A stretch of 64,000 bases of DNA from Candidatus Sericytochromatia bacterium (GCA_035285595.1 JAYKGV010000016.1:19947-83946); one strand, 5' to 3'; shown: positions 5,830-53,790, counted from the stretch's first letter. The notes: generated by a model not told the origin, from the sequence alone. Made by a program: numbers and translations.

Positions 5830-5894
5830 GGGGAGCCTGCCCCGGGGGGAGTCCCGGCCCGATGGGTCGGGGTGTCTCGAGGGAGGAGTCGCCC

Positions 5895-7034
5895 ATGTCG
5901 GCCTTCAAGGGCATTCGTGGAGCTTGGCGTGTGCTCCTCGTGGGCTGGGGCGTGTCCCAGTTGTGGGCGTGTCGTCCTTCGGAGCCTCCGGACGGGACGC
6001 CCGTGGAGGCTGAGCGTCCCGTCGCGGTCCGCATCGAGCGTCCTGTCCGACGTGAGGTGGCGAAGGAGTGGGTCCTGCAGGGGCATGTCCAACCGACCCG
6101 GGAGTGGAGAGCGGTGGCGCGCTTGGGCGGGCGCGTGGTTTCGCTTGCGCCGGAATGGATCAGGCTGACCCCCGGTGCCACTCTGGCCGTGCTCGAGGTT
6201 CCCGAGCTTGCAGGCCAGATCCAGCAGGCCAAGGCGGCGTTGGCCACGGCTGAAGCCGGTCGGGCCACCGCCGAGGCCAACCTGCGGCAGGCGCGCGATC
6301 TGGGGCGCCGCATGCAGGATCTGGCGGAAGGGCAAGTCATGAGCGACCAAGCGCGTGCCCAGGCACGAACGATGATCGACGTGGCGGAGGCGCAGCTCGC
6401 CCAGGCCAGGGCTGCCCGGCTGCAGGCGGAGGGTGCCCTGAAGACAGTGCAGGCCCAGGCCGACGAGTCTCACGTGCGCCTGCCTTCCGCCGGGGTCGTG
6501 ACCCAGCGTTTGGTCGAGCCTGGAGCCGCCGTGATGCCGGGTCAACCTCTGGCCGTGGTCGTCGAGGAGGGCACTCCGCACGTGCGGGTCGCCTTGCCCG
6601 AGCGTGCAGCCGCAGCCGTAGCGCCGGGGGCCATGGCCACGTTGGAGGCTGTCGCACTTCCCGGGGTGAAGATTCCCGCCCGGATCGAAGCGCTCGCTCC
6701 CGTGCTCGATCCAGGCACCCGCACGCGTCCCGTCCGAATCGCGCCCGTGGGGCGTCACGGCCTCAGGCCCGGCATGTCGGTTGAGGCTCGCCTGAAGGGC
6801 AAAGGCCATCAAGGATGGGTGTTGCCCCTCGGGGCGTTGGTCACCGAAGAGGGAGCGGAGGCCGTTTACGTCGTGAGGGACGGTCGTGCGGCCAAAGTCC
6901 CCGTCACCACTGGCTGGCGGGATGCCCGTCACGTCGAGATCGCCTCGGGTCTCGTGGGCGACGAAGGGGTCATTGTCCAAGGTGGAGATTTCTTGCGTAC
7001 CGGGGAGCTGGTGGCCACGGGAGACGCACGGTGA
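5895..7034 (+). CDS. RND efflux pump periplasmic adaptor subunit (membrane fusion protein, HlyD/AcrA family), probable lipoprotein
   Basis: The N-terminus has a lipobox-like LWAC. It is followed by coiled-coil segments and a beta-barrel/MP domain pattern typical of AcrA-like adaptors. RBS gggaggag lies before the ATG at 5895. Confidence 0.85.
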   Translation: MSAFKGIRGAWRVLLVGWGVSQLWACRPSEPPDGTPVEAERPVAVRIERPVRREVAKEWVLQGHVQPTREWRAVARLGGRVVSLAPEWIRLTPGATLAVLEVPELAGQIQQAKAALATAEAGRATAEANLRQARDLGRRMQDLAEGQVMSDQARAQARTMIDVAEAQLAQARAARLQAEGALKTVQAQADESHVRLPSAGVVTQRLVEPGAAVMPGQPLAVVVEEGTPHVRVALPERAAAAVAPGAMATLEAVALPGVKIPARIEALAPVLDPGTRTRPVRIAPVGRHGLRPGMSVEARLKGKGHQGWVLPLGALVTEEGAEAVYVVRDGRAAKVPVTTGWRDARHVEIASGLVGDEGVIVQGGDFLRTGELVATGDAR

Positions 7035-10000: not shown

Positions 10001-10117
10001 GTCCCCGTCGCCTTCGCGGTGCTCGAAGGACTGGGGGACCGACTGCGACGTCGCTGGGGCTTTGCAGGAAATGCGAGGATCGTGGGTACGGTAGAGGGTC
10101 CACTTTCGACGCCATGA
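7031..10117 (+). CDS. RND family efflux transporter permease (AcrB/HAE1-like), ~1028 aa
   Basis: FIRRPVLTSMLMLVTLVLG...VDLFPDVEFPVVVVSVAYPGAAPQEVE...; 12-TM organisation with two large periplasmic loops. GTG start overlaps the adaptor stop (GTGA). Confidence 0.9.
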   Translation: MNFSEPFIRRPVLTSMLMLVTLVLGLMGLARLSVDLFPDVEFPVVVVSVAYPGAAPQEVEALVAKPIEEAIAGTAGLKSLSSTSREGVAIVVAQFRLDANPQSAAADVRDKVSALGERLPADARTPAVQVFDPASEPIMTFAFAGGRPDEVSVFLRERVRPRLEALPGVAAVRPFGDRTREVQVRLEPSRLAAARVAPMAILDALRAWNLDLPGGRIEEGGRWLALRTLGRARTVRELGDIGVRDMKGGSVPLSSVAHVEESFRRPVTAALVDGRPAVVFGIVKAQGANAVQVAARVRTTLDELRSALPEGVRLVTTRDQTEFIREANLSVWEHTAVGGLLAVAVLFLFLRSKAATFIGGLAIPLSIFGTFWLMQWAGFSFNQLTNLGLSMVVGILVDDAVVDLENVWRHLEQGKEPIRAAIDATAEIQLAVTATTLTIVAVFIPVAFMDGLIGKFFEQFGWTVAFAVLVSLLVARTVTPMLSARMLRPGATATATDHDTGFVWAGPYRRLLAWALRWRRTVLFGALAAFVTGLALVPFIPKSFLEQADAGEFMLTLKAPKGSSLQETLHLARGVEGLVRARPEVKTVMTQVGLRDQPDLAQIHAVLHPRGTRRLRDVEVAQEIRDRAQSLPGVRTSIMVIGAVAQGDQNYPIYVQFRSEDMGALAAATDRLVAALRRHPGLTDLDTSLGTARPEVRLLPDRLQMAARGLSPATVAATLRLATEGETATSLPLGGEDVPVRVIHAATVRGDASRWTELEVPGTAGPVALGQVVEVRRGAGYAEIQRLDRGRVATVVGNLRPGMALGDGLEIVAREVRRLDLPPHLSVSLEGQAKDMAESFTGLVQALGLAILFIYVILAVQFESFLHPFTIMLSLPLSVVGAFWALFVSGTELGITAMIGVIMLMGIVTKNAILLVDVTLTYRARGMSVENALLAAAPVRLRPILMTTAAMVMGMLPMAFRLGAGSEYRYPMAIVVIGGLIVSTLLTLLVVPVAFAVLEGLGDRLRRRWGFAGNARIVGTVEGPLSTP

Positions 10118-12063
10118 ATCCATCCTCATCTTTTCCCGAACCCGACCCCTACGCTTTGCTCGGGCTTGCTCGGGATGTTTCCGAGGACGAAGTCTGGGCT
10201 GTCTTCCACGCTCGGGCTGCTGCACTGGTTCGTGGTCGTTCCGGGGATGACTACACCCGGTTGCTCGATGCCTTGCAGATTCTGACCGATCCGCAACGTC
10301 GCGCGGCGCTTGACCGGCGTTTGGCGGGTGTCGAGGTCATGTCCCCGCCCGTCCAGGAGGCACCGCCGCCGCAGCAGCCGCGGGCGACCAGAACGCCCAC
10401 CTTGGTCTTGCGGAAGGGTCTGGACGAGATCATGGAGGAGGCACGTATCCGTGAGCTGGCCAAGAAGCTGGATCAGGAGGCATCCTCGGATACCCCGTCG
10501 CCGGGCCGGCTGGCGCTGAGGGCTTACCTAGCCTTCCGCCTGGACGACGAGTCCAAGGGATTTCAGTTGCTCAAGGCGGCTCTGGCCGCCGATCCCGCCT
10601 GTGCCTACGCCCATTACGCCTTGGCGGTTCATGTGCAGCAGCGCGGGCGTTCGGAAGATGCGTGGGGCATCCTGCAATGGGCCTTGCCGCATGTCGGTGG
10701 AGACAGGGATCTGTGGGTTCGCATCATGGATCTTGCCGCAAGTCTTGGTTGGCCGGACGGCCCGTTGCCCACCTTGATTGCGGCCATGGGCGAGTTCCCG
10801 GGGGATGTGCAGATGGCTGAGCTGCTCGTCCGACGCCTGCTGGCGCACGACCGAGGGACCGATGCCTTGGCACGGGTCAGGGAGGTCGTGACGGCCGTTC
10901 CCAAGGATCCCGGTGGGTGGCGTCTGCAGGGATGGGTGCAAGCTGCGCTCGGGGACGGGGCGGCGGCGGAGACCTCGTATCTGCGGGCACTGGAACTGGA
11001 GCCCCGGCACCCCGAAGCCCTGCGCGAGCTCTCCCGTCTATATGTCCAGGCGACGCACCCTGCAGCGGGTTCGTTGCTTGCCCGCGCCTTGGCTGTCCTG
11101 CCAGACGATGCCGGACTGTGGGGTTTGCAGGGCATTCACGCCCTGCAAAGCGGTGATCTTGGCGGCGCGGAACGTCATCTTTCACGCGCTCAAGCCCTGG
11201 CACCCACGTCTGCCGAGTTTGCCGGGCCGCTCGCCGAAACCCTCATTCGATTGGGCAAGGCGACGGAAGCCCTCGAACCGGCTCGGCGACTGGCCGCCAC
11301 GGACAAGGCTTCCGAGCGGGGGCCGTTCTTCGTCGGCGAGGCGTTGCACATGCTTGGACGTTTTGAGGAAGCCATCCCGTCTTACCTGCAAGCGCTCGAC
11401 CGCTGCATGGACCCCACGCCCGTCCTTTACGCCCTGGCCCGCTGTCACGCCGAGCTCGGCCGACCGGTGGAGGCTCTTGGATATCTGGAGAATGTCGCTG
11501 TGTCGGATCCGGAAGTGTGGGTCTTGCGGGCACGACTTCTGGGGGCGAGCGATCGGCAGGAGGAGGCCGGGGCCGCTTGGCAGGAGGTTCTGCGACAGGT
11601 TCCCGATCGGGCCGATGCCTTGCTGGGATTGGCGACCAGTCTTCTTTCCGGCGGAGACGAGACGGCGGCTTGGCCCTTGATCGACCGCTACATGGCGTCG
11701 TGGGGCCATGATCCTTCGGCTTTGGACGAGCTTGCAGCGATGTGGACCGGTCTCGGCCGCCATGATCTGGCCGTGGAAGCCTATCAAAGGGCCGTGGGCC
11801 GCAGCCCGGGGGAGCGGGCGCGTCACGAACGTCTTTGGGCGGCCATGGAACAGGCCGAGCAATGGCAGGCGTTGCATGCGACATTGACGCAGGCCATCCG
11901 CCTCTTCCCGGAAGATCCTGAGTTGGCCCTGCGTCTGGCGTCCTCGTATGAGCGGATGAACCTCGTCAGCGAGGCCGTGTTGGCGTACCGGCGCTACTTG
12001 CGCTTGGCTCCGCGATCGGCCGAGGCAAAATCCGTCCGAGCTCGTCTCAAGGCTCTTGAATGA
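10114..12063 (+). CDS. TPR-repeat protein with degenerate J-domain-like N-terminus, translationally coupled to the RND pump gene
   Basis: ATG overlaps the RND stop (ATGA). The N-terminus DPYALLGLARDVSEDEVWAVFHARAAAL...LLDALQILTDPQRRAALDRRL resembles J-domain helices I-IV without HPD. The remainder is TPR-like Ala/Leu repeats. Confidence 0.75.
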   Translation: MNPSSSFPEPDPYALLGLARDVSEDEVWAVFHARAAALVRGRSGDDYTRLLDALQILTDPQRRAALDRRLAGVEVMSPPVQEAPPPQQPRATRTPTLVLRKGLDEIMEEARIRELAKKLDQEASSDTPSPGRLALRAYLAFRLDDESKGFQLLKAALAADPACAYAHYALAVHVQQRGRSEDAWGILQWALPHVGGDRDLWVRIMDLAASLGWPDGPLPTLIAAMGEFPGDVQMAELLVRRLLAHDRGTDALARVREVVTAVPKDPGGWRLQGWVQAALGDGAAAETSYLRALELEPRHPEALRELSRLYVQATHPAAGSLLARALAVLPDDAGLWGLQGIHALQSGDLGGAERHLSRAQALAPTSAEFAGPLAETLIRLGKATEALEPARRLAATDKASERGPFFVGEALHMLGRFEEAIPSYLQALDRCMDPTPVLYALARCHAELGRPVEALGYLENVAVSDPEVWVLRARLLGASDRQEEAGAAWQEVLRQVPDRADALLGLATSLLSGGDETAAWPLIDRYMASWGHDPSALDELAAMWTGLGRHDLAVEAYQRAVGRSPGERARHERLWAAMEQAEQWQALHATLTQAIRLFPEDPELALRLASSYERMNLVSEAVLAYRRYLRLAPRSAEAKSVRARLKALE

Positions 12064-13102
12064 TCCGCCGAGCTTCGTTCGGCTGCAAGAGCGGCACACG
12101 TCGCATCGTGCGGCGCGCCAGATAACCGCGCGCCCGGGGGGCGGCCGAGTCTCCGGGTGCCAGTTCGAGAAAGCGGCGGAAGGCCTTGGCTGCCAGGTCT
12201 CCTTGGCCTTGACGATGAAGGGCCACCCCCAGGTTATAGTGTGCGGCGGCAAGTTCCGGGCGGGTCTTGAGCGCCTTGCGGCAAGCGGTCTCGGCATCCT
12301 TAGACTTGCCCAGCGAGATGAGCGCCAACGCCCGCCCGACCTCCGCGATGGCCGGATCCGCACCGGAACGACCCGCCGCCGTAAAGTTCTCGAGTGCGAT
12401 CGTGTGACGGCCTTCTTGCCAAGCCTTGGCTCCGTCCGCAAGGAGCTTGGCGGGTCCGGACAGGTGTGGGGCTCTTGGCGCCGGAGGCAAGGTGCGCCGC
12501 GGGCGCGTGCGTTCCCCGGGAACTGCCTCCGCCTCGGCCAAAAAGGGTGGTGTCAAGGTCGGAGCGGGATGCACCGGCCTTTCCGAACGGCTGAACAGCC
12601 CTACGATCACGAGGAGACCGCCAAGCAAAGGCAACAGCAGTGGCCAGGCCCCGGGGACGGTGGAGGGCGTCTGGGGTGGCGGGTGATTCGACCTACGGTC
12701 ACGCAGCGGCGTGACTTCGGGGGGCGAAGGAGCTGCTTCCGCAGTTTCGGGCTGCTGGAGGACCGGTGGAGGCGAAGGCGGCAGCGCGGAACTCCCTCGT
12801 GCTCGTCGCTCGGCTTCGTGGCGTTGCATTTCCCGCCGTCGGGCGAGCTCAGCGAGAATGTCCTGATCCGTCAGGCTTGCAGGCTGGGAACTCTGTGTGG
12901 CGGCCACTTCCGTGGGCGCCCCGAGGGTCGCGGCGATTTCAGCCAGCCTGGCCAGTGCAGCTTCGGCCCGTTCCCGGGTTTCCGGGGTCGTGGCCACGTC
13001 ACGTCGCCGTTGCCAGCGGACCCTTGCGGCATCCAAGGCTGTGCGAACCACTTCTTCACCGGCGGTTTCCGGCAGTCCCAGCAACTCGCGAGCGGTCATC
13101 AT
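12047..13102 (-). CDS. Bitopic membrane protein with J-like N-terminus, Pro-rich linker and C-terminal TPR repeats (last gene of minus-strand operon)
   Basis: Start ATGATGA overlaps the stop of the 13099-15168 gene. Features are MMTARELLGLPETAGEEVVRTALDAARVRWQ, the TM helix AWPLLLPLLGGLLVIVGLF, and C-terminal TPR-like AAHYNLGVALHRQGQGDLAAKAFRRFLELAP. Confidence 0.6.
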   Translation of the reverse strand: MMTARELLGLPETAGEEVVRTALDAARVRWQRRRDVATTPETRERAEAALARLAEIAATLGAPTEVAATQSSQPASLTDQDILAELARRREMQRHEAERRARGSSALPPSPPPVLQQPETAEAAPSPPEVTPLRDRRSNHPPPQTPSTVPGAWPLLLPLLGGLLVIVGLFSRSERPVHPAPTLTPPFLAEAEAVPGERTRPRRTLPPAPRAPHLSGPAKLLADGAKAWQEGRHTIALENFTAAGRSGADPAIAEVGRALALISLGKSKDAETACRKALKTRPELAAAHYNLGVALHRQGQGDLAAKAFRRFLELAPGDSAAPRARGYLARRTMRRVPLLQPNEARRIIQEP

Positions 13103-15168
13103 ACGGCCCACCACGTACCGTGGACGGGGCCACAGGTCTTGCAACGTCCCTTTGGCGCGGGCGCAAGGCATGAGGGGCAGGACGTTCTGGCTGCTTCGGA
13201 TTCGGCAAGGACCCGGGCCGTCCAGCCCAAGCGATCGAGGCGCGCCCACATGGTCGCGGCCCATGCGCCGGGAAGGCCCGGAGCCTGCAAGGCATGCAGG
13301 AGACGTGCCAGCTGTCTGGCCTGTTGACGGCCAGCTTCGCCTTCACGGTGCTGGAGGCCACGTTCGGCAAGGCTTCTCGTACGGGCAAGCCAGGCGGGGT
13401 TCGTCCTCAGTTGCTCTGGAAGCCGCCACGGTTCGCGGCCAGCGGCTACGGCGACCCAGCGTTCGTCCTCTCCGAGCAAGCGAAAGGCACCTCCCCGCCA
13501 GCAAAGACCCCCCAGCGCAAGCGCGATGAAGACCGTCACGGCCACCTCCGGGTCTACCCCTGGTGCAGGGGAGTCGGGCCGACCGCCCCACAGGAGCTGC
13601 CACCCAGGGCGCAAGGCCCTGCCGCCGTGGCCGGTGAAAGGATGTAGGTCGGGATCGTAGAGACCGCGGGCCGAGCGCGATCGTGAACGCTGCCCTGCCG
13701 GCGCCGTCGCGGACATGGCGGTGGCCCGCACGGCCCGTGCCGTCAAGGCCCCCATGAGGTCGGCGACCTGGGGCACCACGGGCAGGGCTTCCTCACCCAC
13801 GAGGCGCTGGACCCAGCCGGGACCTCCGGCGGCTTCCAGCAAGGCTTCCGGATGGTGGGCGGCAAGCCAGACAAGGGCATCTTCCACGGCGTGCTCGTGC
13901 TCGTGTTCCATGCCGGGCAGGGCTTCTCGGGCCAGGACAGGACCAAGGTGTGCCAGGCGTCTCCCGGCTTCCCGTTCAACCAAGGTGTGCCAGGTCCCTA
14001 GCGTCCGTATCATCCGTGCGACCTGATCCTGCAGGTCCTCGAGACACACCCGGCGGATCTTCATGGTCTGAAGTTCCGACAGGTCTCGCCACCAAGGGGT
14101 GATCCGACTCGTCACGCGAAGGACCTCTTCGGCCGCGAGAGGGGCGGGCAGGCCCAGAAAACGGCTGCGTCCGGGCTTCAGGCTTTCGAGGGCTTGCGAT
14201 ACCTCCCCTTCCGACCTGTCGAGGGCCTCGCGCAAGGCGGCTTCTCGTTCGAGGGACGCCTGGTGTCTCTCTATCAAGCCTGCGTGCAGGTGCTCCAGCA
14301 CACTCAGCCAGTGCGCCACGATGCCTGCTCCAGGACGCCCTTGGCCCGAGGACCATAACTCCGCCTGCAGCCCTTCTCTCAAGGTGTCCACTTGTGCACG
14401 CCTCAAGGAGTCGGGTGGCGACCATCCGGGCTCGAGGACGCTCCGTCGGACCTCCAACTCGGCAAGCAGCCACGATCGCAGACTTTCCCCCCGGACGGGT
14501 CCGGCCTCCTGCATCGCGCGGGCAAGGGTCTCGAGGTCGGCCTCGGCGGACTCTGGAACATCCACTCGGGCCCAGAGCCCAGCAGGAAAGCTGACCTCAT
14601 CCGTCGGGTTCTGTTCGAGCAAGTCTTTGAGCAGACGGCTCTCGAGGATGGCCTGGACGCGTTCTCGGTCGTGCCCGGAGATCACGCCCCGCCAGGAACC
14701 GCAAGGGACCGGGACCTCCGGGGTTGCGAGCAGGTCTCGGAGCAACAGGCTCGCGGCGGCGGAGACATCGGGCGTCCTTCTGCCCGCTTTTTCGCCTTCT
14801 CCGACCCAGGTCGAGGCCACGTCACGGGAGGCCTCGGTTGCCCAATCCCGGAGCATGTCGTGCAGGACGGCCTCTGGCGCCGAAGAGCACGATACGAGAT
14901 GCACCACGCCTTCCCCGACCGAGAGGATGCGTCTCCAATAGGCGTCCTCCCTGGCCAGGGTGCCTTGCAGGCCCGAGTCGCCGGGAACGTGGGTGACCCA
15001 GGGACCGGCCCACCAAGGACCATCAGGGTTCGTGCCCAGACGTTGTACGGGTCCGGGGAAGTCGAAGTCGACCCCCTCTCCGGTCAGCGCGACGAAGCGC
15101 GGCCGCGGAACCAGACCGGGCGTGACGGCCATGGCCAGCAAGGCGTCGAGGATACGCAGGACTTGCAT
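13099..15168 (-). CDS. Hypothetical protein (~690 aa) with one TM helix and C-terminal C4 zinc ribbon
   Basis: Ends ...CPSCLAPAPKGRCKTCGPVHGTWWAV* (CxxC-N9-CxxC). TM helix VAVTVFIALALGGLCW. Start chosen at the ATG at 15168, preceded by aaggaagg; a GTG at 15216 is an alternative. No family recognised. Confidence 0.5.
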   Translation of the reverse strand: MQVLRILDALLAMAVTPGLVPRPRFVALTGEGVDFDFPGPVQRLGTNPDGPWWAGPWVTHVPGDSGLQGTLAREDAYWRRILSVGEGVVHLVSCSSAPEAVLHDMLRDWATEASRDVASTWVGEGEKAGRRTPDVSAAASLLLRDLLATPEVPVPCGSWRGVISGHDRERVQAILESRLLKDLLEQNPTDEVSFPAGLWARVDVPESAEADLETLARAMQEAGPVRGESLRSWLLAELEVRRSVLEPGWSPPDSLRRAQVDTLREGLQAELWSSGQGRPGAGIVAHWLSVLEHLHAGLIERHQASLEREAALREALDRSEGEVSQALESLKPGRSRFLGLPAPLAAEEVLRVTSRITPWWRDLSELQTMKIRRVCLEDLQDQVARMIRTLGTWHTLVEREAGRRLAHLGPVLAREALPGMEHEHEHAVEDALVWLAAHHPEALLEAAGGPGWVQRLVGEEALPVVPQVADLMGALTARAVRATAMSATAPAGQRSRSRSARGLYDPDLHPFTGHGGRALRPGWQLLWGGRPDSPAPGVDPEVAVTVFIALALGGLCWRGGAFRLLGEDERWVAVAAGREPWRLPEQLRTNPAWLARTRSLAERGLQHREGEAGRQQARQLARLLHALQAPGLPGAWAATMWARLDRLGWTARVLAESEAARTSCPSCLAPAPKGRCKTCGPVHGTWWAV

Positions 15169-15197
15169 GCCTTCCTTTCCCAGGGCCACCAGCAAGG

Positions 15198-16529
15198 TCA
15201 CGGCGATTTTCTCCACCAACCACGGGCCTGGGCTCGAGCAAACCGCACCAGCCGTGCCCTGGCCTCGGAGCCGTCCTTTCCCAAGTGCGCTTCGCGCAGG
15301 TGCTGGCCCTCCCCCCAGGTCAGCCACCAGCCGTCGGCACGTTCTTCCCGCATGACGCTCGTAGCCTGCCATAGAGCCGCTCCCGGATCGGATGCACGGG
15401 GTCGCGTCGCGAGGGGCAAGCTGGGAACGACACGTTCCGGAGAGACCAGGGAAGGCCAGTTCCAGCCTCTTGCGGCCACGAGGTGCGCTTGGGACCAGGG
15501 AACGAACCATCGCCCGAGATGAACACCCCCATGTCGACGAAGAGGCGAAGGAGCCGAGGTCTCTTGGTGGCCACGAGGGGGTGGCGTGATGGGCATGCGA
15601 TCGCAGGCCTCCCAAGCCTCCTCGATCAGTCGCCAAGGTCCGGTCGCAGGCGGCAGGTACTTTCTCCTGAGCTGCCAGCCTTCCTCCCGGAGCCGTGCGT
15701 CCAGAGGGCGTTTCGCGAGGTCACGCGCCCGCACCAGTTGCAGCAGCACGCTTCGATCGTGCTGCTGCGCCTCATCGGCCAGTTCGGCCAAGGCCAGCGG
15801 TAGTCCTTCCTCATCGAGTTCGGGCCGAGGATCTTCTTCGCCCGGCAGGTCACCGACGATGCGAGACAGAGCGCGGGCCATCGCCTCGGTTCCTTCCGTC
15901 CGCCGTACGCCCTCCAGGTGAGCACGCAGGCTGTCCGCCATCCAAGCGAGAGGCCACCGGGCCGCGCGCCACGCTCGCAGCGCGGCCTCTCTTGTCGGCA
16001 ACGGTTCCTTCGGCCAAGGCCAAAGTGCGGTGCGCAGCAACTCTTCGACCTCCGGGGCAAGTTCGGCCTCTGAATCGAAGATCCTCCACGGACCGGGCAA
16101 GCCCGGGAGGCCCTCAGACCCGGGGTGGTGAATCTCGGGACCGGTTGAAGTGCCCACGGGGTGCGGGCGCAGACTGAGCGGCAGAGACGTCGGTGGCAGC
16201 TCGTCCTGTGCCCACAGGCACAGGGCGGTCTCAAGGATCAGCTCCGGGGGATGTCCCTTCTCGTCCACCAACTGATACACGGCAGGACCCGCCAAGCTGC
16301 GTCCCCGGGAGACCACGGCCAACACGGCAAGTGTCTGCGGAGCTTCCCGCAGTCGGAGATTCAGGGCACGTGGCGCCACCTCATCACAAGCCAGAAGGAC
16401 CACGGTTGTCGGTCCGGGGGAGTCGGGCCATCCCCGGAAGGCTGTCGTGCCGACCGGCAGCCGCGGCCTTGCCCGTTCGAGGGCCGCCTCGGCGCTTCGT
16501 CCCAACAGATGGACTTCCGGTGGCCTCAT
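15198..16529 (-). CDS. Hypothetical protein (443 aa)
   Basis: ATG at 16529 overlaps the stop of the upstream small membrane gene (ATGA). The reading frame is consistent over 1.3 kb; no motif recognised. Confidence 0.5.
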   Translation of the reverse strand: MRPPEVHLLGRSAEAALERARPRLPVGTTAFRGWPDSPGPTTVVLLACDEVAPRALNLRLREAPQTLAVLAVVSRGRSLAGPAVYQLVDEKGHPPELILETALCLWAQDELPPTSLPLSLRPHPVGTSTGPEIHHPGSEGLPGLPGPWRIFDSEAELAPEVEELLRTALWPWPKEPLPTREAALRAWRAARWPLAWMADSLRAHLEGVRRTEGTEAMARALSRIVGDLPGEEDPRPELDEEGLPLALAELADEAQQHDRSVLLQLVRARDLAKRPLDARLREEGWQLRRKYLPPATGPWRLIEEAWEACDRMPITPPPRGHQETSAPSPLRRHGGVHLGRWFVPWSQAHLVAARGWNWPSLVSPERVVPSLPLATRPRASDPGAALWQATSVMREERADGWWLTWGEGQHLREAHLGKDGSEARARLVRFARAQARGWWRKSP

Positions 16530-16804
16530 CCCCGTATCCATGCCGCGAACCACAGGCTTGTCCCTGCGACCGTGAAGCCCGTGGCCAACATGACTTGGGT
16601 CAGAGGAGCATGTCCCGGACAGAACGCCACGATGGCACCCAGGACCCCGACAAGACAACTTGCGGCGAGTCCCGCAAGGGCCGCCTCGAGCGGGCGCTCG
16701 GGAGCCTTGGACAGCAAGGCCCGCGGCAGGCCCCAGGCTACCCAGACCGCCGTGGCGAGGGTCGCGGCCGCGAGGGTGAGACGGGTGATCAGGACGTCAT
16801 CCAC
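16526..16804 (-). CDS. Small integral membrane protein (~92 aa), hypothetical
   Basis: GTG start overlaps the GNAT stop (GTGGATGA). Three predicted hydrophobic helices (LAAATLATAVWVAWGL; LAGLAASCLVGVLGAIVAF; VMLATGFTVAGTSLWFAAW). Confidence 0.4.
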   Translation of the reverse strand: MDDVLITRLTLAAATLATAVWVAWGLPRALLSKAPERPLEAALAGLAASCLVGVLGAIVAFCPGHAPLTQVMLATGFTVAGTSLWFAAWIRG

Positions 16805-17291
16805 GTTCGCGGGCCTCCTGGTCCTCTTCGAGGACCAACTCCACCGTGGCCTCCTTGAAGCCGGTTCGCCGGTACAGCGCACGCGCAGGAGTATTGTCGA
16901 CGTGCGTGAAAAGCCGCAAGCGCTTCATGCCCGACCTTGCGGCCAGCGTGCGGGCATCTTCGAGCAGCAGATGGCCGATGCCTTGGCCGCGATCCTCGGG
17001 ACGCACGGCCAGGACGACGATGAAAAGCTCCGCGAGACCCGTCACCGGATGATGGGAAGGCAAGGACCAGCAGAAGCCGGCCACCCTGCCGTCGCGCCGC
17101 TGGAACACCCGCACGTGTCCACCTTGTTCCGCGTACCATGCCCATTGGCTTTCGATTCGTTCTCGCACTTCACTGCGGGTCAATGAGGCGAGGTCGGGAT
17201 AACTGGACCGCACTGCCTGCTCGAAGAGATCCTTCAAGAGGGGCCCGTCCTGTGGGCCGGCCGGGCGTACGGTTCCTGCATCAACGTTCAC
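16797..17291 (-). CDS. GNAT family N-acetyltransferase
   Basis: LFIVVLAVRPEDRGQGIGHLLLEDARTLAARSGMKRLRLFTHVDNTPARALYRRTGF shows acetyl-CoA-binding motif A (R/Q-x-x-G-x-G/A) and motif B. GTG start lies 11 nt inside the upstream gene's 3' end. Confidence 0.8.
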   Translation of the reverse strand: MNVDAGTVRPAGPQDGPLLKDLFEQAVRSSYPDLASLTRSEVRERIESQWAWYAEQGGHVRVFQRRDGRVAGFCWSLPSHHPVTGLAELFIVVLAVRPEDRGQGIGHLLLEDARTLAARSGMKRLRLFTHVDNTPARALYRRTGFKEATVELVLEEDQEARERG

Positions 17292-20200
17292 GGGGCTTCA
17301 ATACTCCGGAAAGCCAGGTCCTATAGGGGCGTTCGCGATCCGGCGCCTGGTCCTTTCGCCAAGGTGCCCACGGCCGTTGCCACCGCACGCCACCTACAAG
17401 GTAGCGGTACCGACCGGGATGCTCCAAAGGCCATGGGTCCACAAGGTAGCGGACCTTGGGCTGATCCAGGTGTCCCACGACGCTCCAGTGCGCGTCCTGG
17501 TCCGAAATCGAGGCACGCAGCACGATGACTTGGTCGAGGGGTTCCTGCCAGCTCAGCAGCGTGCCTGCGGGGGCTTCGGCGAGCTTGACCTCCAGCTTTG
17601 CGGCTCGAGGTTGAGGCCAAGGCGGCAACACGTCTCTTGCGGCCCGCAACAGGGTGGGAGCCGTGACAAGGGCCGCGGCCACCGCGAGCCCCGTGAGCGT
17701 GCCGCGAACCCTGTGGAGCTGCTGCCGAAGCACCGGCAGATGATTCAGGGACGGGTTCAGCGAGGGCAGATCCAACAGAGGGGTCAGGGGTGCGAGGCCC
17801 TGGGGTGTCCGTAGCATGAAGCGACATTCACCCCGTTCTGGTGCATGGACAAGGGTCAAGGGACGATGCCCCTGGGGCACGAGAACAGGCTGGACCAGCA
17901 AGGCCCGGTCGCGTTGGCGACGCAATCCTCGGTCCTGCCACCAACGCACAGGATGGCGCCACGCGCTCGATGCGGGCCGCGAGGGTGCGGGCGGCATCCC
18001 TGCCATGCCGGGAGGGGCATCGCGTCGGACCGCCAGATGGGCATATGCCGCTTCATCCTCGTCCGCCTCCTCCAGCAAAGCCAAGCCTTCCTCACTGTCG
18101 AGCACGGGTGCTTCGGATGGAGGTTCCGTACGCACAGCCGCTTCGATAGGACCTTCGTAACCCTCCTCGGCCAGTAGCTTGAGCAGAAGTTCATCCTGAT
18201 CGTCGTCCATGCCAGGGAAGGTGAACGCAGGGGTGTCTGCCGCGGGAACTTCGTGGGGCAGGGGATCGAGGTCGTCGAGCCGCCGAGCCGCCTGTCGAGA
18301 GGGGCCAGGCAGCATCCAGCCGATCAGGCCCAGCTCGACCAGCCGTTCGAGATCGCCCGGGCCGAGACGTTGGATGGGGACCACGGCCATGATGCGGTGC
18401 ACGGTGATGCCTTCGGGGCCCCAGGCCGTGTCGCCCAGCAAGGCTGCTTCGCCTTGCAAGGGCCATTCAAGGTCTACCGGCAAGCTGATGCGATGGGCCT
18501 CCCCAAGCGTGTCGAGGCTGCGGAACCGTGAAAAAGCTGCCTCTGGCAGGTTGACCAAGGTTTCCATAGTGGTCTCGGGGGGGGCATCCGTCGTCTCCCG
18601 GACCTGGACAGCCTCTTGTGGCCCTGTCAGTAGCTCCGCATCCTGCTCGCTTTCCGGCAACGGAGGAGGGGCAGGGGTCGGTGCCCGGACAGGTTCGAAG
18701 ACCTCGTCCGGAGCCGAGCCCAGGACCGCCCGGAGCGCATCCAGATCCTCGAGGTCGCTCCAAGGCTCTTCTGGAATCTCCTGGGTGAGGGCGGCGGCCG
18801 CGGCGGGTGACGCAGGCGGCTGGGACTGCCCATCGGACGGTTGGACCTGCAGCGGTTCCAGCGGTCCGGTACCGTACCTTCGGAAAAGTGACTCCAGCTC
18901 GGGATCCTGATCGAGGTGAGCCACGGATTCGAGCAGAGCCTCGTCGATTTCGGCTTCCTGCCATGCATCCGTTTCCCTGTCAGGATCCGGATCCGGTCCG
19001 GAAGGCTCCTCGACGGCCGGCTGCGGGTCCGGTGCCACGTCCGCTCTCGGTGGCCAGTCTTCCTCGAGGCTCCTTTCAATCTCGTGGGGCTCGTCGGGGG
19101 CGGCCTCCGATATCAAGTCCTGATCGAAGGGTTCAAGCCTGTCCTTCGACTCTTGCTCCAGGTCTTCCGCGTCTTCAGGGCTTTCTTCGCTTTCGAGCCC
19201 GCTTTCGTCCTCGCCACGAAGCAGCGATGGCTCGAGCTCTTCGAGGCTCGGAAAATCCATTTCCCCGGCCAAGTACCGTACCAGCAAATCCTCCGGATCT
19301 TCGAGGCGCTCCAGCAGGTCCAACTGAGCGGCTTCGAGGACGAACACAGGGGCGTCGGGCAGGGGGAGGATTACGAAGGTATCTGGTTCGAGTCCCGATG
19401 GCTGCTCCAGGGGGCCGGCGAGAGCGGGATCCTCTTCTTCGGGCCGTTCGGGCACCCTCGTCTCTCGTGCGAACGCCTCTGGCCGTTGCGGGACCGGTGG
19501 GATCGGATCCGCAAGGTTCTGAGCTTGCGTCGGAGTCGCCACGGGAGAGACGGGATCTGCCAGATTGCCCACGATCTCCTCGAGGGTCACAGATGGCGGC
19601 TCGGGGGATGGAGCCTCGCTCTGAGGCTGAATTCTTGGCGTCAGCCCGCCCAGCCTGACCGCTTCCTCAATCTTCTCCGGGTCGTCCAGCGGCAGCCAGC
19701 CTTCCGGGGTGTCGACCGGGGGCCACGCATCGTCGGAGTCCTTGGAACGCCATCTGAAGCCCAGGCCGGGCAGATGGAAGGTGGGCGGCAGGCTACCCTC
19801 CGCAAGGAGGTCACCGGTTTGGGACTTTTCCGGCCTTTCCTCGGTACGTTTCCCGATGTTGTACCGCGCGGCCATCTTGTCCAGGCGATCGGTTCGGGAA
19901 CCGACCCCACCGCTCTTGGACCAGCCGTGGCCCGTGAAGGATTCCGGGGGGCGTTGTAGCGCGACAGGCTGTACCTTGGGCACGACCAGTCGGTTGCCGG
20001 CTTGTTGGCGGGCCTCGGCGAGCTGGGCATCGTAGGTTCTGCGCAGCTGCTCGTCCAACAGGAGCACGCCGGCCTCGTCGAGCAGCTCCATGGCAGATCG
20101 GGCGTCGTGCTGCAAGGATGGGTGATCGAGCCGACTTTGCCAGAAACTGCGATAGTTGGCGATGGCAGCGGAAAGATCGGCAATCGAGCCCTTTTCGGGC

Positions 20201-20643
20201 AATCCCAGCAGGGTGTAGTAATCCGGGACCTCGGCATTGCTCCCGAGTGGGGCGGTACCCGCCGTGAGGCCAACGATGGCCTCCTTGATGACGGCAGGAT
20301 CCCTGCTGGGGAGACTAACGACCCGCACACCCTCCGTGGCCATGCGCTCGATGAATCCGCGGGAGTCATTGAGGGGGGCCGTGGCTGGTGTTCCAGACAG
20401 CAGGCAGAGATGGGTCGAGGCCAGCAATCGGGGAGCCTCGGGTCCGAAGGCCACGCGAATCCCCCGTACGGTTTCATTCAGGACATCTTCCGTGCCGGCT
20501 ACGATGACCCCGTCCCAGGTCCGGCCGGAGCCGCAAGCATCGAGGAAGGCCTGCAGATTGCCGGGTTCGTGACGTAGGGCCTCGAATTGGCCTGGGGGCC
20601 AGGACACGGTCCGGGGCAATGCATCGAGTAAAAGCCAGGCCAT
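17281..20643 (-). CDS. Large (1120 aa) acidic/Pro-rich bitopic membrane protein with N-terminal globular domain, J-domain-like module and C-terminal extracytoplasmic domain
   Basis: A J-like module (DYYTLLGLPEKGSIADLSAAIANYRSFWQSRLDHPSL...LLDEQLRRTYDAQL) lies at 20028-20223. It is followed by ~650 aa of low-complexity D/E/P-rich sequence, the TM helix LTGLAVAAALVTAPTLL, and a ~130-aa C-terminal domain ending ...GRYRYLVGGVRW. Confidence 0.65.
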   Translation of the reverse strand: MAWLLLDALPRTVSWPPGQFEALRHEPGNLQAFLDACGSGRTWDGVIVAGTEDVLNETVRGIRVAFGPEAPRLLASTHLCLLSGTPATAPLNDSRGFIERMATEGVRVVSLPSRDPAVIKEAIVGLTAGTAPLGSNAEVPDYYTLLGLPEKGSIADLSAAIANYRSFWQSRLDHPSLQHDARSAMELLDEAGVLLLDEQLRRTYDAQLAEARQQAGNRLVVPKVQPVALQRPPESFTGHGWSKSGGVGSRTDRLDKMAARYNIGKRTEERPEKSQTGDLLAEGSLPPTFHLPGLGFRWRSKDSDDAWPPVDTPEGWLPLDDPEKIEEAVRLGGLTPRIQPQSEAPSPEPPSVTLEEIVGNLADPVSPVATPTQAQNLADPIPPVPQRPEAFARETRVPERPEEEDPALAGPLEQPSGLEPDTFVILPLPDAPVFVLEAAQLDLLERLEDPEDLLVRYLAGEMDFPSLEELEPSLLRGEDESGLESEESPEDAEDLEQESKDRLEPFDQDLISEAAPDEPHEIERSLEEDWPPRADVAPDPQPAVEEPSGPDPDPDRETDAWQEAEIDEALLESVAHLDQDPELESLFRRYGTGPLEPLQVQPSDGQSQPPASPAAAAALTQEIPEEPWSDLEDLDALRAVLGSAPDEVFEPVRAPTPAPPPLPESEQDAELLTGPQEAVQVRETTDAPPETTMETLVNLPEAAFSRFRSLDTLGEAHRISLPVDLEWPLQGEAALLGDTAWGPEGITVHRIMAVVPIQRLGPGDLERLVELGLIGWMLPGPSRQAARRLDDLDPLPHEVPAADTPAFTFPGMDDDQDELLLKLLAEEGYEGPIEAAVRTEPPSEAPVLDSEEGLALLEEADEDEAAYAHLAVRRDAPPGMAGMPPAPSRPASSAWRHPVRWWQDRGLRRQRDRALLVQPVLVPQGHRPLTLVHAPERGECRFMLRTPQGLAPLTPLLDLPSLNPSLNHLPVLRQQLHRVRGTLTGLAVAAALVTAPTLLRAARDVLPPWPQPRAAKLEVKLAEAPAGTLLSWQEPLDQVIVLRASISDQDAHWSVVGHLDQPKVRYLVDPWPLEHPGRYRYLVGGVRWQRPWAPWRKDQAPDRERPYRTWLSGVLKPRER

Positions 20644-20646
20644 AGG

Positions 20647-22512
20647 TCAGCGCCCCCAGGCATCCCAGGGCGGTCGTGCCCTCAGGCCGACTGCTGCCGT
20701 GTCCCAGGGTTGTCCCAGCAATCCGTGGCGGTCTTGCGGCAGGATGAGGTAGCGATAGATGCCTTCGGTTTCGACGTGGTCCTGGAGCGACCGGCGGGCG
20801 TCCAAGCGTCGCTCGCCTCCGAGCAGCACCGTCGGTCCCGGAGGATCCAGCGCCTCACGCAACACCCACAGCCCGTGGACGTCGGGATCCGGGCGCCGTT
20901 GCCCAAGGGAGATTGTCTGACGGTCCAGCGAAAGCCCGAGCGTGCCTTGAATGGGACGAAAGGCTCCGGTTCCCGGCCAATCCACGGCGACGGCCCGGGA
21001 CCAGTGCAGGGGTTGTCCGTCCGGGTCAAGCGCCGCCAGGCGATACCACAACCGGGTCGTGGGTGGGTCAGCTCCCAGCCTGGGGCGAGGCAGGGCCATC
21101 CGGTCGGTACCGGCGGGGATCATGTGCAGGCGCCGGCGATCCCCGGGCCTGCACTCGGCCCGGGTACAGGCATACAAGGCGAGGGCTTCTTGCCGGGCCT
21201 CCCAGCGAAGCAAGGGGTCCGTGCCCTCGCGCCGGAGAGCGAACGTGCCGGGACGCTCCATCCACAGGAGTGCAAGCCATCCAAGCAAAGCAAGGATCAC
21301 GCCTGTTCGGCGATCAACAGGAGCCAGCACCTCGGTGAACCCACGTGCGATGACCCGAGGCCATGGCTTGCGGGCTCCCTTGATCAAGCCTCCCGTGGCG
21401 GGATCGAAGATCGGCTCCGAGCGCCCGGGCCGGCGGGGCATCCGTCCCACCGACGGGCGTCGGAACATCACCGCTTCCGCACCCACGTCATCGACCACGA
21501 GGCAGGTCTGCCAGAGGTGAGGCATCAGGGCATCGTGCAAGCCTCCGTCTTCCCGTACAAGACCGCCGCCTGGCCGCAGGACGTAGGTCCCTACCGGCAC
21601 CATGGCCGTACCCGGGTGATGCGTGCCGGTATGCAGCAGGCCTTGCATGACCCGACGGGCCTCGGTGTGGTCGCCAGGTGGTCTGTCCCCCTCGTCTGCG
21701 AGCGGAACGGCCGCCAGGATCGTGACGTCGATCCGGCGTCGACCGTGGGTGTCGCCGGCCAAGGCCACGCGCCCGAGCAGCAGGCCACGCCGGGTGACGA
21801 CCGGAGGCCGGGGGTCGAGGGAGCGTCTGAGGCTGGTTGGCATGCACAGACGCAAGCGGGCATCCGAGCCAGGGACGAGCCACAGGTCGTCTGCCATGCG
21901 ACCGAGACCGACAGGGGCAAGGGGCCAGTGGGTCGTCGGGTCCGTCTCGGGGGCATCGGGTGCTTCGAGCGTCGCCCACGAGTCATCCTCGAGGGTGTCC
22001 GGATCAAGGGGAGAAGAAGTCGGCAAGCCTTCGCGGATGGGATGCTCGTCCCCGATGCCCAAGGTGTCGAGCGCCTCGCCGAGTGTTTCGTAGAGTCCCG
22101 CCAGATCAGCCACCGATGAGCCGTCGTCCGGCTCATCGGTGGCGACCGACCGTGGGGGTGGAGCTTCGGAAAAGGGCGTGTCCACCCGGTCCTGGATGGG
22201 CGAGGGCGGCAGGGCGCTGGTCGGAGTGGATGCCTGCGCCGGTGCGGGGGATTCATCCGTAGCAAGCCCCTCGCCATCCAGGACGAACCGGGAAAGCGCA
22301 GGGATGGCCGCTCCACCTTCCGGAAAGGCATCCTCGAGCGAGGACAACAGGCCCAGTCCGCCCTCAATGTCCGTGCCCCGGGCCTCCTCGTCGGTGAAGG
22401 CGGCCAGCAGGGCCTTACGTTCTTCGGCCGTCGTGCGAGCGGCTTCGAGCCCTCCGCCGGATTCGGGTGACGACGGGCCTGCCGCATCGTGGGAAGAACC
22501 AGCCGGAACCAT
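20647..22512 (-). CDS. Bitopic membrane protein (621 aa) with acidic disordered N-terminus, central globular domain, TM helix and C-terminal extracytoplasmic domain (first gene of operon)
   Basis: ATG at 22512 lies 53 bp from the divergent leuS start. TM helix [14 protein letters not shown]. The C-terminal domain ends ...[12 protein letters not shown], similar to the C-terminus of the downstream 1120-aa protein. Confidence 0.6.
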
Positions 22513-22565
22513 GGCCCTATTCTACCCTCGCGGGCAGGCTGGTACGATGGAGAGCTACGCCGGAG

Positions 22566-24998
22566 GCCCCATCCATGCAGGAACGTTACGATCCCCACGT
22601 CATCGAGCCGCGCTGGCAGGCCTACTGGGAGCAGCACGAGACCTTCCGGGTCACCGAGGATCCCGCGCGGCCGAAGTACTACGTCCTCGACATGTTCCCT
22701 TATCCCTCGGGAGCCGGGTTGCATGTCGGTCATCCCGAGGGTTACACCGCCACGGACATCGTGGCGCGCTACAAGCGGATGAAGGGCTTCAACGTGCTTC
22801 ATCCCATGGGATGGGATGCCTTCGGGTTGCCGGCTGAGCAGCACGCGCTGGCGACCGGCGAGCATCCGCGCGAGATCACCCGTCGCAACATCGACACCTT
22901 CAAGCGCCAGATCAAGTCCTTGGGATTTTCCTATGACTGGTCTCGTGAGTTCAGCACGACCGATCCGGGCTACTACCGCTGGACCCAGTGGATCTTCCTG
23001 AAGCTGGTCGAGCGCGGACTGGCCTATGTGGCGGAGGTGCCGGTCAACTGGTGTCCGGCTCTTGGCACGGTCCTCGCCAATGAGGAGGTCATCGACGGCA
23101 AGAGCGAGCGGGGTGGTCATCCCGTCGTGCGCAAGCCCATGCGCCAGTGGATGCTGCGTATCACGGCTTACGCCGATCGGCTCCTGGAGGACCTGTCGGA
23201 TCTGGACTGGCCCGAAAGCGTACTCGACATGCAGCGTCACTGGATTGGGCGTTCGGAAGGGGCCGAGATCACGTTTGGGATCAAGGGCCATGACTTGACC
23301 TTCGAGGTCTTCACCAGCCGTCCGGACACCCTGTTCGGGGCAACTTACTGCGTTCTGGCGCCCGAGCATCCCTTGGTGGCCCAGGTGACCACCGGGGCGT
23401 GTCGCGAGGCGGTCCTGACCTATCAGGCCGAGGCCGCCCGCAAGAATGACCTCGATCGCACGGATCTGGCGACTGAAAAGACCGGAGTCTTCACGGGAGC
23501 ATATGCCGTCAACCCGGCCAATGGAAAGACGATCCCGATTTGGATTGCCGACTATGTGCTGGCTTCCTATGGCACGGGAGCCGTGATGGCCGTCCCGGCC
23601 CATGACGTCCGGGACTGGGAGTTTTCGCGGGTGATGGGCTTGCCCGTGATGCGGGTCGTCGAGGGGGGAGACCTGGCTGAATCCGCATGGACGGGAGACG
23701 GCGCTCACGTGGCGTCCGGCTTCCTCGATGGCTTGGATGTCGCATCGGCCAAGCGCAGGATGATCGAGTGGCTCGAGCAGGAAGGATGTGGCCGCCGCAA
23801 GGTGAATTACCGCCTGCGAGACTGGCTGTTCAGCAGGCAGCGTTACTGGGGTGAGCCCATTCCCGTCGTCCACCATGGGGATGGCTCCTGGTCGGCGCTG
23901 GCCCCCGAAGCCTTGCCCCTGCGGCTGCCCGACCTCGAGGAGATCCGTCCGAGCGGTACGGGCGAAAGTCCTCTCGCTCTGGCGAAGGAGTGGGTGGAAA
24001 CCGAGGTCGAAGGGCAAGCGGTCCGACGCGAGACCAACACGATGCCCCAGTGGGCAGGGTCGTGCTGGTATTACCTGCGCTTCATGGATCCCCACAATGC
24101 CGAAGCGCCTTTCGGCAAGGACAAGGAAGCCTATTGGGGCCCCGTCGACCTCTATGTCGGGGGCGCGGAGCACGCGGTACTGCACCTGCTTTACGCCCGA
24201 TTCTGGCACAAGGTCCTGTACGACCTGGGCTTGGTCTCGACCAAGGAGCCTTTCAAGCGTTTGTTCAACCAAGGGATGATTCTGGGTGAGAATGGCGAGA
24301 AAATGTCCAAGTCACGGGGCAACGTCGTCAACCCGGATGACGTCATCAAGGCCTACGGCGCGGATACCTTGCGCATCTACGAGATGTTCATGGGCCCGCT
24401 CGAGGCCTCCAAGCCGTGGAACACCCAGAATGTCGCGGGTTCCCATCGCTTCCTCGAGCGGGTTTGGAAATTGGTCGTCGGACCCGACGGCCTGTTGAGT
24501 CCTGCCGTTCGCGACGTGGATCCGCTCGGGGCCCGGGATCTCGAGCGTGCCCTGCATAAAGCCATCGCCAAGGTCGGCGGAGATATCGAGGCCTTGCGGA
24601 TGAACACGGCCATCAGCGCCTTGATGATCTTCCTGAACGAGGCCTCGCGCGCCGAGGTTCTGCCGCGAGCGACCCTCGAGCGCTTCGTGCTTCTGGTCTC
24701 TCCTTTCGCGCCGCACCTGGCCGAGGAACTGTGGCAGCGGCTCGGACACCCGAGGAGTCTGGCGCATGAGCCCTGGCCGATCTATGACCCCGCGATGACG
24801 GTCGACGACATCATCGAGCTGGCCATCCAAGTCAACGGCAAGGTGCGTGGGCGTATCGAGGTTCCGGCCGATGCCCCCGTCGAGGTGGTCGAGAAGGCGG
24901 CCCTCGAGGATGCGGATACCCGGACTTGGTGCGAAGGGAAGACCATCGTCAAGGTCGTGGTCGTTCCCGGGCGCCTCGTCAACGTCGTCGTGCGCTGA
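22566..24998 (+). CDS. leuS: Leucine--tRNA ligase
   Basis: [26 protein letters not shown]...[55 protein letters not shown] with HIGH (HVGH) and KMSKS (KMSKSRGN) motifs. RBS ggagg before the ATG. Confidence 0.95.
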
Positions 24999-43126: not shown

Positions 43127-43129
43127 ACG

Positions 43130-44179: not shown

Positions 44180-44215
44180 GCAGGGCTGGCGGGGGTATAG
44201 AGGGGGGACGCAGCC

Positions 44216-53732: not shown

Positions 53733-53790
53733 CGGGGGGTTCCTTTCGGGGGATACGAGCTTTGTCTTCATCATACCCAAGGTGGAGGCC

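Follow-up and report, generated by a model that had tools for sequence, protein, structure and literature searches.

A conserved seven-gene operon of largely orphan proteins from freshwater Candidatus Sericytochromatia, possibly encoding a membrane-anchored scaffold

What might be built by seven closely packed genes whose products, with few exceptions, resemble nothing in the family databases? We addressed this question for a stretch of 64,000 nucleotides from a metagenome-assembled genome (MAG) of a Candidatus Sericytochromatia bacterium (GCA_035285595.1, JAYKGV010000016.1:19947-83946), here called the window, in which seven minus-strand open reading frames (ORFs) fill positions 12047 to 22512 (~10.5 kb). 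Of the non-photosynthetic lineages, Sericytochromatia stand closest to the oxygenic cyanobacteria, and, to our knowledge, almost nothing is known of their cell biology. We find that the seven ORFs are genuine genes in a conserved order, that their detectable homologs appear restricted to one small clade, and that five of the seven proteins belong to orphan families. The products may form one inner-membrane-anchored scaffold or hub complex, a reading to which we assign a probability of roughly 0.4. In the following, the operon genes are named g1 to g7 in transcription order, n1 is the convergent neighbor, W is the window, and L001 to L018 are related loci. The features on which the argument draws are these:

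20647..22512, minus strand: g1, 621 aa, MEB3298555
17281..20643, minus strand: g2, 1120 aa, MEB3298554
16797..17291, minus strand: g3, 164 aa, MEB3298553, GNAT N-acetyltransferase, whose first 11 nt overlap the end of g2
16526..16804, minus strand: g4, 92 aa, MEB3298552, small predicted membrane protein
15198..16529, minus strand: g5, 443 aa, MEB3298551, apparently soluble Trp/Pro-rich orphan
13099..15201, minus strand: g6, 700 aa, MEB3298550, apparently soluble orphan
12047..13102, minus strand: g7, 351 aa, MEB3298549
19996..20238, minus strand: J-like domain of g2, aa 136-216, without HPD (LDHPS here, VDHPT in relatives)
13132..13179, minus strand: C4 zinc ribbon of g6, C675-x2-C678 ... C687-x2-C690
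22519..22524, minus strand: -10-like hexamer and candidate promoter, a TAnnAT conserved upstream of the g1 ATG

Coding status, gene junctions, and distribution

The window has a GC content of 0.63-0.69 and many long spurious ORFs on both strands, and GC at third codon positions (GC3) discriminates poorly, so that the length of an ORF is by itself no evidence of a gene. Comparison with orthologs is more telling. At third codon positions, each of g1 to g7 differs from its counterpart in locus L012 by 0.51-0.64 per site, compared with 0.26-0.41 at first and 0.19-0.34 at second positions. The same seven ORFs occur, at 47-66% protein identity, in orthologous loci of further MAGs and of metagenomes, and the protein alignments alternate between conserved blocks and variable, indel-rich linkers of low complexity. 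Moreover, the seven translations are identical to the NCBI proteins MEB3298549-MEB3298555 (VKO21_03595-03620 and neighbors), encoded on a 136-kb contig of a Candidatus Sericytochromatia MAG. The codon-position pattern, the conserved blocks, and the identity to the calls of the Prokaryotic Genome Annotation Pipeline (PGAP) show that g1 to g7 are real protein-coding genes under purifying selection. All seven were found where the original prediction had placed them, except that g6 starts at the GTG at 15201 (700 aa), in a 4-nt overlap with the g5 stop, and not at the ATG at 15168.

The genes follow one another with a 3-nt gap between g1 and g2, an 11-nt overlap between g2 and g3, an 8-nt overlap between g3 and g4, and 4-nt overlaps at the g4/g5, g5/g6, and g6/g7 junctions, and no gene on the opposite strand interrupts the string. 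In the gene calls of L001-L005, whichever of these junctions a locus includes has the same geometry, apart from a g7 start placed farther upstream in L001-L004 and a g1/g2 gap of 2 nt in L001. It is kept even in the most divergent contigs, namely L006/L007 (g5 39% identical), L017 (g1 51% identical), and L018. As far as gene order and junctions can tell, g1 to g7 are therefore a single, vertically inherited, conserved operon with predicted translational coupling, as had been proposed from the overlaps and the 3-nt gap at its six junctions, which recur in relatives.

Next, we asked how far the operon extends beyond its host. The g6 profile was searched exhaustively, without a word pre-filter, and g1 and g5 by word-indexed searches. 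A full HMMER scan with the g6 profile of 1.84 billion representative proteins clustered at 50% identity returned 4 matches, all of them clade members or fragments thereof. The word-indexed searches added two clusters for g6, five for g5, and five for g1, again all from clade members; among the five clusters homologous to g5, the most distant is 39% identical. When one genome for each of 185,579 GTDB species was scanned, three species were recovered, two of them Candidatus Sericytochromatia MAGs and the third Candidatus Tanganyikabacteria VGJW01, while a scan of JGI metagenomes matched contigs from Lake Tanganyika only. Tanganyikabacteria are a monophyletic, freshwater-only group within or sister to Sericytochromatia (PMC8245535). 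Detectable homologs thus appear confined to a small freshwater clade of Sericytochromatia (Candidatus Tanganyikabacteria-like). The proposal that the system is previously undescribed is strengthened by these searches, with no relative outside the clade found for g6 among the 1.84 billion representatives and clade members only found for g1 and g5.

The order g1 to g7 is kept in every relative found, so that the lack of synteny named as a refutation of the proposal did not occur. However, the flanks are also syntenic wherever a locus is long enough (16-21 kb; for leuS, also L017): leuS lies on the upstream side, and n1-AcrB-MFP, followed by a hypothetical gene and an amidase, on the downstream side. 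Because the flanking genes share this synteny and the relatives are too close to separate selection from inheritance, conserved order alone cannot prove functional linkage.

Families, architecture, and predicted topology of the seven proteins

When the seven proteins were compared with the profiles of Pfam, NCBIfam, PADLOC, and PHROGs, in part with one family member at a time at E ≤ 10, GNAT and TPR matches were all that came back. PADLOC gave zero matches for any of the seven at E ≤ 1, and the sole PHROGs match within the operon was a generic acetyltransferase (g3). Sequence-profile searches of the PDB with g1, g2, g5, and g6 produced nothing except sub-threshold J domains for g2. By these searches g1, g2, g4, g5, and g6 match no known family. 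Since five of the seven proteins constitute orphan families, the cluster would fall outside every known kind of system, in agreement with the original claim that it maps to none, and no confident profile match to a characterized family emerged from Pfam, NCBIfam, PADLOC, PHROGs, or the PDB profiles. The GNAT is also the sole enzyme family detected in the operon by Pfam and NCBIfam; judged by its detectable families, the operon is thus not a metabolic pathway.

The GNAT itself, g3, matches Pfam Acetyltransf_1 with 59.3 bits (cut-off, 20.7), and in the PDB it is related to GNATs of a generic kind, among them RimI and N-alpha-acetyltransferases. No specific equivalog model of NCBIfam reaches its cut-off (RimI, 46.8 versus 86.4; MshD, 47.3 versus 163.1; ArsN1a, 44.3 versus 170), and the substrate of g3 is not assignable. 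For g4, neither Pfam nor NCBIfam yielded a match, and in g7 only generic TPR models match, among them TPR_16 with 51.5 bits against a cut-off of 32.7.

Hydropathy places transmembrane (TM)-like segments at aa 981-999 of g2 and aa ~150-172 of g7, and three in g4. A candidate at aa ~403-420 of g1 is weak, short, and below the threshold used. By the same measure g5 and g6 have no convincing TM segment, and both look soluble. Accordingly worded, g1, g2, g4, and g7 are predicted to be membrane anchored. Single TM helices and TPRs had been attributed to the proteins other than the acetyltransferase, which is right for the TM helices of g1 (weakly), g2, and g7 and for the TPRs of g7, but g4 has three such segments and g5 and g6 have neither feature. 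Given their large N-terminal regions and the absence of a signal peptide, g1, g2, and g7 are expected to adopt an N-in/C-out orientation. Under this predicted topology, ~200 aa of g1, ~120 aa of g2, and the TPRs of g7 would lie in the periplasm. The products had likewise been described as very acidic; net acidity is strong in g1 (86 D+E versus 68 K+R) and g2 (193 D+E versus 101 K+R) only, and the other operon products are not strongly acidic.

In g1, the N-terminal region (aa 1-195) is acidic and includes short motifs that are conserved; it is followed by a conserved globular region, assigned to the cytoplasm (~196-400), and, after the weak TM segment, by a beta-rich region of ~200 aa that is predicted to be periplasmic and holds a conserved pair of cysteines, C449 and C454. 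In g2, an alpha/beta-looking domain (1-135) precedes the J-like domain (136-216) and a conserved basic/aromatic segment (217-335). Acidic, Pro-rich, variable sequence with conserved islands then occupies aa 336-690 and 800-870 on either side of a conserved globular region (691-800), and the TM segment (981-999) is followed by a beta-rich region of ~120 aa. The third protein with a single TM-like segment, g7, consists of a J-like region (aa 1-62), a helical/Pro-rich linker, the TM segment (~150-172), and C-terminal TPRs (~215-330) predicted to face the periplasm. In g6, an alpha/beta-looking N-terminal region, a long helical hairpin at aa ~292-425 (taken from a poor AlphaFold2 model), and a highly conserved stretch at 473-503 lead to a C-terminal alpha+beta domain and finally the C4 zinc ribbon. 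The four cysteines of the ribbon (C675, C678, C687, and C690) are invariant in three aligned sequences, two of which weakly match Pfam DZR (E 0.006); the terminal zinc ribbon proposed at the outset is thereby upheld.

All seven PDB matches of the g2 profile are J domains over aa 136-216, every one of them sub-threshold (E 0.2-3), and hhalign aligns this region with the J domain of E. coli DnaJ at a probability of 83% (E 9e-6), while Pfam DnaJ gave no match to g2 at E ≤ 10 and TIGR02349 reached E 0.31. The N terminus of g7 (aa 1-62) aligns with the J-like domain of g2 (hhalign probability 95%, E 2e-8) and, directly, only weakly with that of DnaJ (32%). A third such region stands at the N terminus of n1 (PDPYALLGL...RGRSGDD...LTDPQRRAALD), where it is followed by TPRs (hhalign probability against the DnaJ J domain 94%, E 1.6e-7; tblastn E 6e-4). 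The degenerate J-like modules suggested earlier are thus supported, for g2 by sub-threshold PDB profile matches and hhalign and for g7 by hhalign. In none of the three is the HPD tripeptide present at the aligned position, which reads HPS in g2 (HPT in relatives), RRRDVATT in g7, and RGRSGDD in n1, and because the motif is absent we call these proteins J-like rather than J-domain proteins. HPD is essential for the stimulation of Hsp70 ATPase activity; J-like domains that lack it are unable to stimulate Hsp70 and can instead form heterodimers and play a regulatory part, as Pam16 does with Pam18 (PMC12953747). Between operon members, the J-like domains of g2 and g7 are the sole clearly related pair. 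The C termini of g1 and g2 are weakly similar (E 0.005-0.04, probability ≤7%) and share a G-x-YRYL motif.

Structure prediction added hints at most. AlphaFold2, run on shallow alignments, gave poor models for g6 (pLDDT 46.9) and for aa 190-621 of g1 (pLDDT 42.5), so that the Fn3-like and coiled-coil assignments are to be taken as hints only. The best Foldseek matches of the g1 model in the PDB are tandem fibronectin-III domains at non-significant E values of 1e-3 to 5e-2; they fit the moderately confident beta-rich region after the TM segment and the G-x-YRYL motif shared with the g2 C terminus, and hint that the periplasmic ends of g1 and g2 may be weakly Fn3-like. The check for known folds that had been recommended, here done for g6 and part of g1, thus revealed no significant match, on models of poor quality.

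Two identities suggested by particular stretches of sequence were tried and dropped. The N terminus of g6 begins with LLxGxGxxG, which prompted a comparison with FtsZ and tubulin: hhalign against E. coli FtsZ gave a probability of 0.6%, the region corresponding to T4 (HLVSCSSAPEA / HLVLSGRDPEA) has no glycine signature (GGGTGS/TG), and neither Tubulin nor Tubulin_2 of Pfam matched at E ≤ 10. Operons of FtsZl1 typically include vWA and GTPase partners (PMC2875224), and these are absent here. By eye, aa 240-345 of g1 and aa 730-780 of g2 resembled inactive MPN/JAB domains; none of the Pfam families JAB, Prok-JAB, and RadC matched at E ≤ 10, and the hhalign probability against YicR of E. coli was 0.1%, in a single-sequence test that is weak and with an AlphaFold2 model too poor to judge.

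A possible membrane scaffold and the competing readings

The reading that we favor, one inner-membrane-anchored scaffold or hub, draws on the TM-like segments of g1, g2, g4, and g7, the acidic g2 with its conserved islands, and the TPRs of g7. In such a complex, g1 and g2 would be bitopic N-in/C-out proteins with long, acidic, partly disordered cytoplasmic arms, whose conserved short motifs may serve as docking sites, and with small beta-sandwich (Fn3-like) ends in the periplasm. A third bitopic subunit, g7, would offer a periplasmic TPR platform, and the periplasmic Fn3-like and TPR modules might contact components of the envelope. The HPD-less J-like domains of g2 and g7 would act as protein-protein interfaces and not as Hsp70 activators, either binding each other or modulating DnaK in a Pam16-like manner. 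With its coiled-coil hairpin and zinc ribbon, g6 would be a soluble cytoplasmic subunit, as would g5, and g4 a small membrane subunit, while the GNAT g3 may acetylate one of the subunits or some cargo. Through tight translational coupling, the subunits would be made in set proportions. The assembly might organize the pole, the septum, the envelope, or pili. That it spans the envelope is plausible from the predicted topology.

Several known systems resemble parts of this arrangement. The polar landmark proteins HubP, FimV, and TspA serve as docking hubs; they cross the membrane once, and their cytoplasmic region, very large and acidic, is combined with modules of TPR type and a small domain in the periplasm (PMC12918733). 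The likeness to these proteins of Vibrio and Pseudomonas lies in the one TM segment of g2, its net charge of ~-92, and the conserved islands of its acidic linker, together with the TPRs of g7. However, none of the seven proteins shows a LysM domain or the FimV C-terminal motif in Pfam or NCBIfam, and there is no sequence similarity. The predicted orientation here (N-in/C-out) is the opposite one, the periplasmic end is beta-rich, and the functions would be split over several proteins, whereas HubP and FimV have no J-like domain and no GNAT or zinc-ribbon partners. In outline the arrangement also resembles J-like membrane scaffolds of the ARC6/ZipN type, although the domains that define those are likewise undetected by Pfam and NCBIfam. 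The Agl-Glt gliding machinery of Myxococcus (GltE, GltJ) is a multi-gene set of bitopic Pro-rich, TPR, and zinc-ribbon proteins predicted to span the envelope. Here, g7 weakly matches the GltE model NF033758 (E 4.6e-6; 25.9 bits, cut-off 225), no more than a likeness between TPRs in general, and by Pfam and NCBIfam the operon lacks a TolQR/ExbBD-type motor, outer-membrane beta-barrels, and other Glt homologs.

Several considerations weigh against the scaffold. The predicted topology comes from a simple hydropathy scan and a lack of signal peptides rather than from a dedicated predictor, with the g1 segment below threshold. Both AlphaFold models are of low confidence (pLDDT 46.9 and 42.5), and the fold searches gave no significant match. 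Conserved synteny reaches the flanking genes and so does not prove functional coupling. Finally, g5 and g6 could be enzymes of an unrecognized fold.

A bolder version of the scaffold, which we regard as doubtful, is a new kind of trans-envelope organizing complex, perhaps including n1. In it, J-like domains without HPD would have taken on a new role as the interfaces through which bitopic hubs with acidic intrinsically disordered regions assemble or are regulated, and the components would either be de novo inventions of one clade or have changed within it too far to be recognized. In any case, the operon represents a 10.5-kb, seven-protein investment conserved across the clade. Should its products form a single membrane assembly, this would amount to an envelope or polarity machine that defines the lineage; it would also show J-like modules at work beyond the classical chaperone cycle and supply five protein families without known relatives. 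Its present practical value is that of a well-delimited target for structure prediction with better multiple sequence alignments and for heterologous expression.

The presence of three J-like proteins inside 12 kb is unusual, and it invites an alternative in which g2, g7, and n1 recruit or restrain DnaK at the membrane as part of an Hsp70-linked module for envelope biogenesis or export. Working with the adjacent RND pump, it would help to assemble a substrate, perhaps modified by the GNAT, or to feed it to MFP-AcrB and the periplasmic TPR/Fn3 modules. The neighbor of the pump, n1, indeed combines its N-terminal J-like domain (94% against DnaJ) with TPRs, is ATGA-coupled to AcrB, and converges on g7, and MFP-AcrB-n1 adjoins g7 in every locus long enough to tell. 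Yet HPD is missing from all three J-like domains, n1 lies on the opposite strand in a different operon, the adjacency is uninformative because all relatives share the wider synteny, and neither dnaK nor grpE is found among ~35 profiled ORFs of the window. We consider this module unlikely. 

Two further known systems resemble the J-like proteins of the locus. In the J-like/J-domain pair Pam16 (Tim16)/Pam18 of the mitochondrial import motor, a membrane-associated J-like domain without HPD serves dimerization and regulation instead of Hsp70 activation (PMC12953747), and g2 and g7 have paralogous J-like domains that lack HPD, but the locus has no bona fide HPD J-domain partner and no translocase context, so that the analogy is one of module use only. 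TPR-containing J-domain co-chaperones (the DNAJC3/DNAJC7 type and cyanobacterial J+TPR proteins) unite J-type and TPR modules in one polypeptide, as g7 and n1 do, but keep HPD and are soluble, whereas here HPD is lost and the modules of g7 are predicted to lie on opposite sides of the membrane.

It could also be that there is no single machine, and that heterogeneous, lineage-specific genes are packed and co-transcribed in a compact genome, their order reflecting recent common ancestry only. The carriers are indeed close enough that unrelated flanks (leuS, AcrB, and the amidase) keep their order, and GNAT, TPR, and J-like modules are generic. This sits uneasily with the overlap geometry, which recurs down to 39-51% identity, with the paralogous modules shared between members (the J-like domains of g2 and g7 at 95%; the weakly similar C termini of g1 and g2), and with the prediction that four of the seven products are membrane anchored in complementary topology, and we rate this reading as quite unlikely.

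By analogy with cyanobacterial ZipN/Ftn2 and plant ARC6, the products might instead be a scaffold for cell division or cell shape. In ARC6/ZipN, an N-terminal J-like domain whose HPD is not functional is joined by a Pro-rich linker to one TM helix and a C-terminal domain outside the cytoplasm; the protein anchors cytoskeletal filaments at the inner face of the membrane and reaches partners beyond it. This coarse architecture is shared by g7, with its J-like aa 1-62 and single TM segment at ~150-172, and also by g2, the host belongs to the cyanobacterial phylum, and an AmiC-type amidase is encoded 8 kb away. Against it, neither Pfam nor NCBIfam detects the cytoplasmic FtsZ-binding domain, the IMS (DUF4101-type) domain, or any other ARC6/ZipN-specific domain in the seven proteins. 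The extracytoplasmic parts are instead TPR- or Fn3-like, g7 ending in TPRs and g2 in a beta-rich domain, and no link to FtsZ is evident: the operon contains no ftsZ, sepF, or min gene, and the N terminus of g6 is not FtsZ-like (0.6%). A wider occurrence than one small clade would moreover be expected, and a division scaffold therefore seems improbable.

A mobile-element, phage-derived, or anti-phage defense island, of which narrow-range orphan proteins are typical, is essentially refuted by the lack of PADLOC matches, a generic acetyltransferase as the sole PHROG match, GC equal to the genome background, no integrase, tRNA, or repeat boundary seen, and a fixed place in the chromosome, since leuS and the RND operon enclose the cluster in all species recovered. 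More generally, the match in GC between the operon and the rest of the window, the absence of PADLOC or informative PHROG matches, and the unchanged chromosomal flanks in all contigs that extend to them indicate that the operon has probably not been acquired recently.

Borders of the operon and neighboring genes

On its 5' side, the operon diverges from leuS (start 22575, plus strand, MQERYDP...), leaving a spacer of 62 nt (22513-22574). The spacer contains a hexamer of the form TAnnAT, TAGAAT in the window and TATCAT in the relatives, whose end is separated from the g1 ATG by 6 nt in each of W, L001, L010, L012, and L017. The hexamer suggests a leaderless or near-leaderless operon transcript, of which it is the candidate promoter; a strict sigma-70 scan found no full promoter. 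The leuS side of the spacer carries a GGAGG Shine-Dalgarno sequence on the other strand. The N terminus of g1 (MVPAGS) is conserved, as is the nucleotide sequence of its first codons, possibly a trace of leaderless initiation.

On its 3' side, the operon meets the convergent n1 (10114-12063, 649 aa), and the 3' ends of g7 and n1 overlap by 17 nt in the window. No Rfam family was found in 11500-23200, and consensus terminators were no more numerous than expected from shuffled sequence.

Four of the seven products carry Trp-rich C-terminal motifs, namely RPPWDAWGR in g1 (20650-20680), RPWAPW... in g2 (17284-17380), ARGWWRK in g5 (15201-15230), and HGTWWAV in g6 (13102-13125). The relatives have these motifs too, and each is located on or close to a junction where stop and start overlap. 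They may reflect either a function in the protein or a constraint from the overlapping coding and initiation signals.

The convergent neighbor n1 (MEB3298548, 10114-12063, plus strand) is a soluble 649-aa TPR protein whose ATG overlaps the stop of the AcrB-family gene (ATGA, 10114-10117). It is the last gene of an operon (5862-10117, plus strand, before n1) that encodes an MFP (~5862-7034) and an AcrB-family RND pump (ORF 6815-10117; Pfam ACR_tran from residue 76), with no gene for an outer-membrane factor nearby. Beyond it, a long ORF without a Pfam match occupies 4058-6340 on the minus strand; the relatives have a hypothetical gene of 535-575 aa between the amidase and the MFP, a clade-restricted orphan. 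The amidase is an AmiC-type N-acetylmuramoyl-L-alanine amidase with an AMIN domain (2324-3769, plus strand), beside a YebC/TACO1-family gene (1530-2327).

On the far side of leuS, the window holds ORFs of 400-530 aa without a Pfam match at 36066-37364, 38061-39290, 49451-51049, and 52440-53903, histidine kinases at 32053-33444 (plus strand) and 34123-36069 (minus strand), a GH38 alpha-mannosidase-like protein at 55715-58330 (minus strand), and a GAF protein of HD/HD-GYP type at 58317-60614 (minus strand). A Tad/Flp-type pilus set extends over 40029-49120 (plus strand), with a TadE-like gene at 40029-41267, a CpaF/T2SSE-family ATPase at 45103-47334, and the ORFs 47334-48200 and 48119-49120 in what is, by position only, the place of TadB/TadC.

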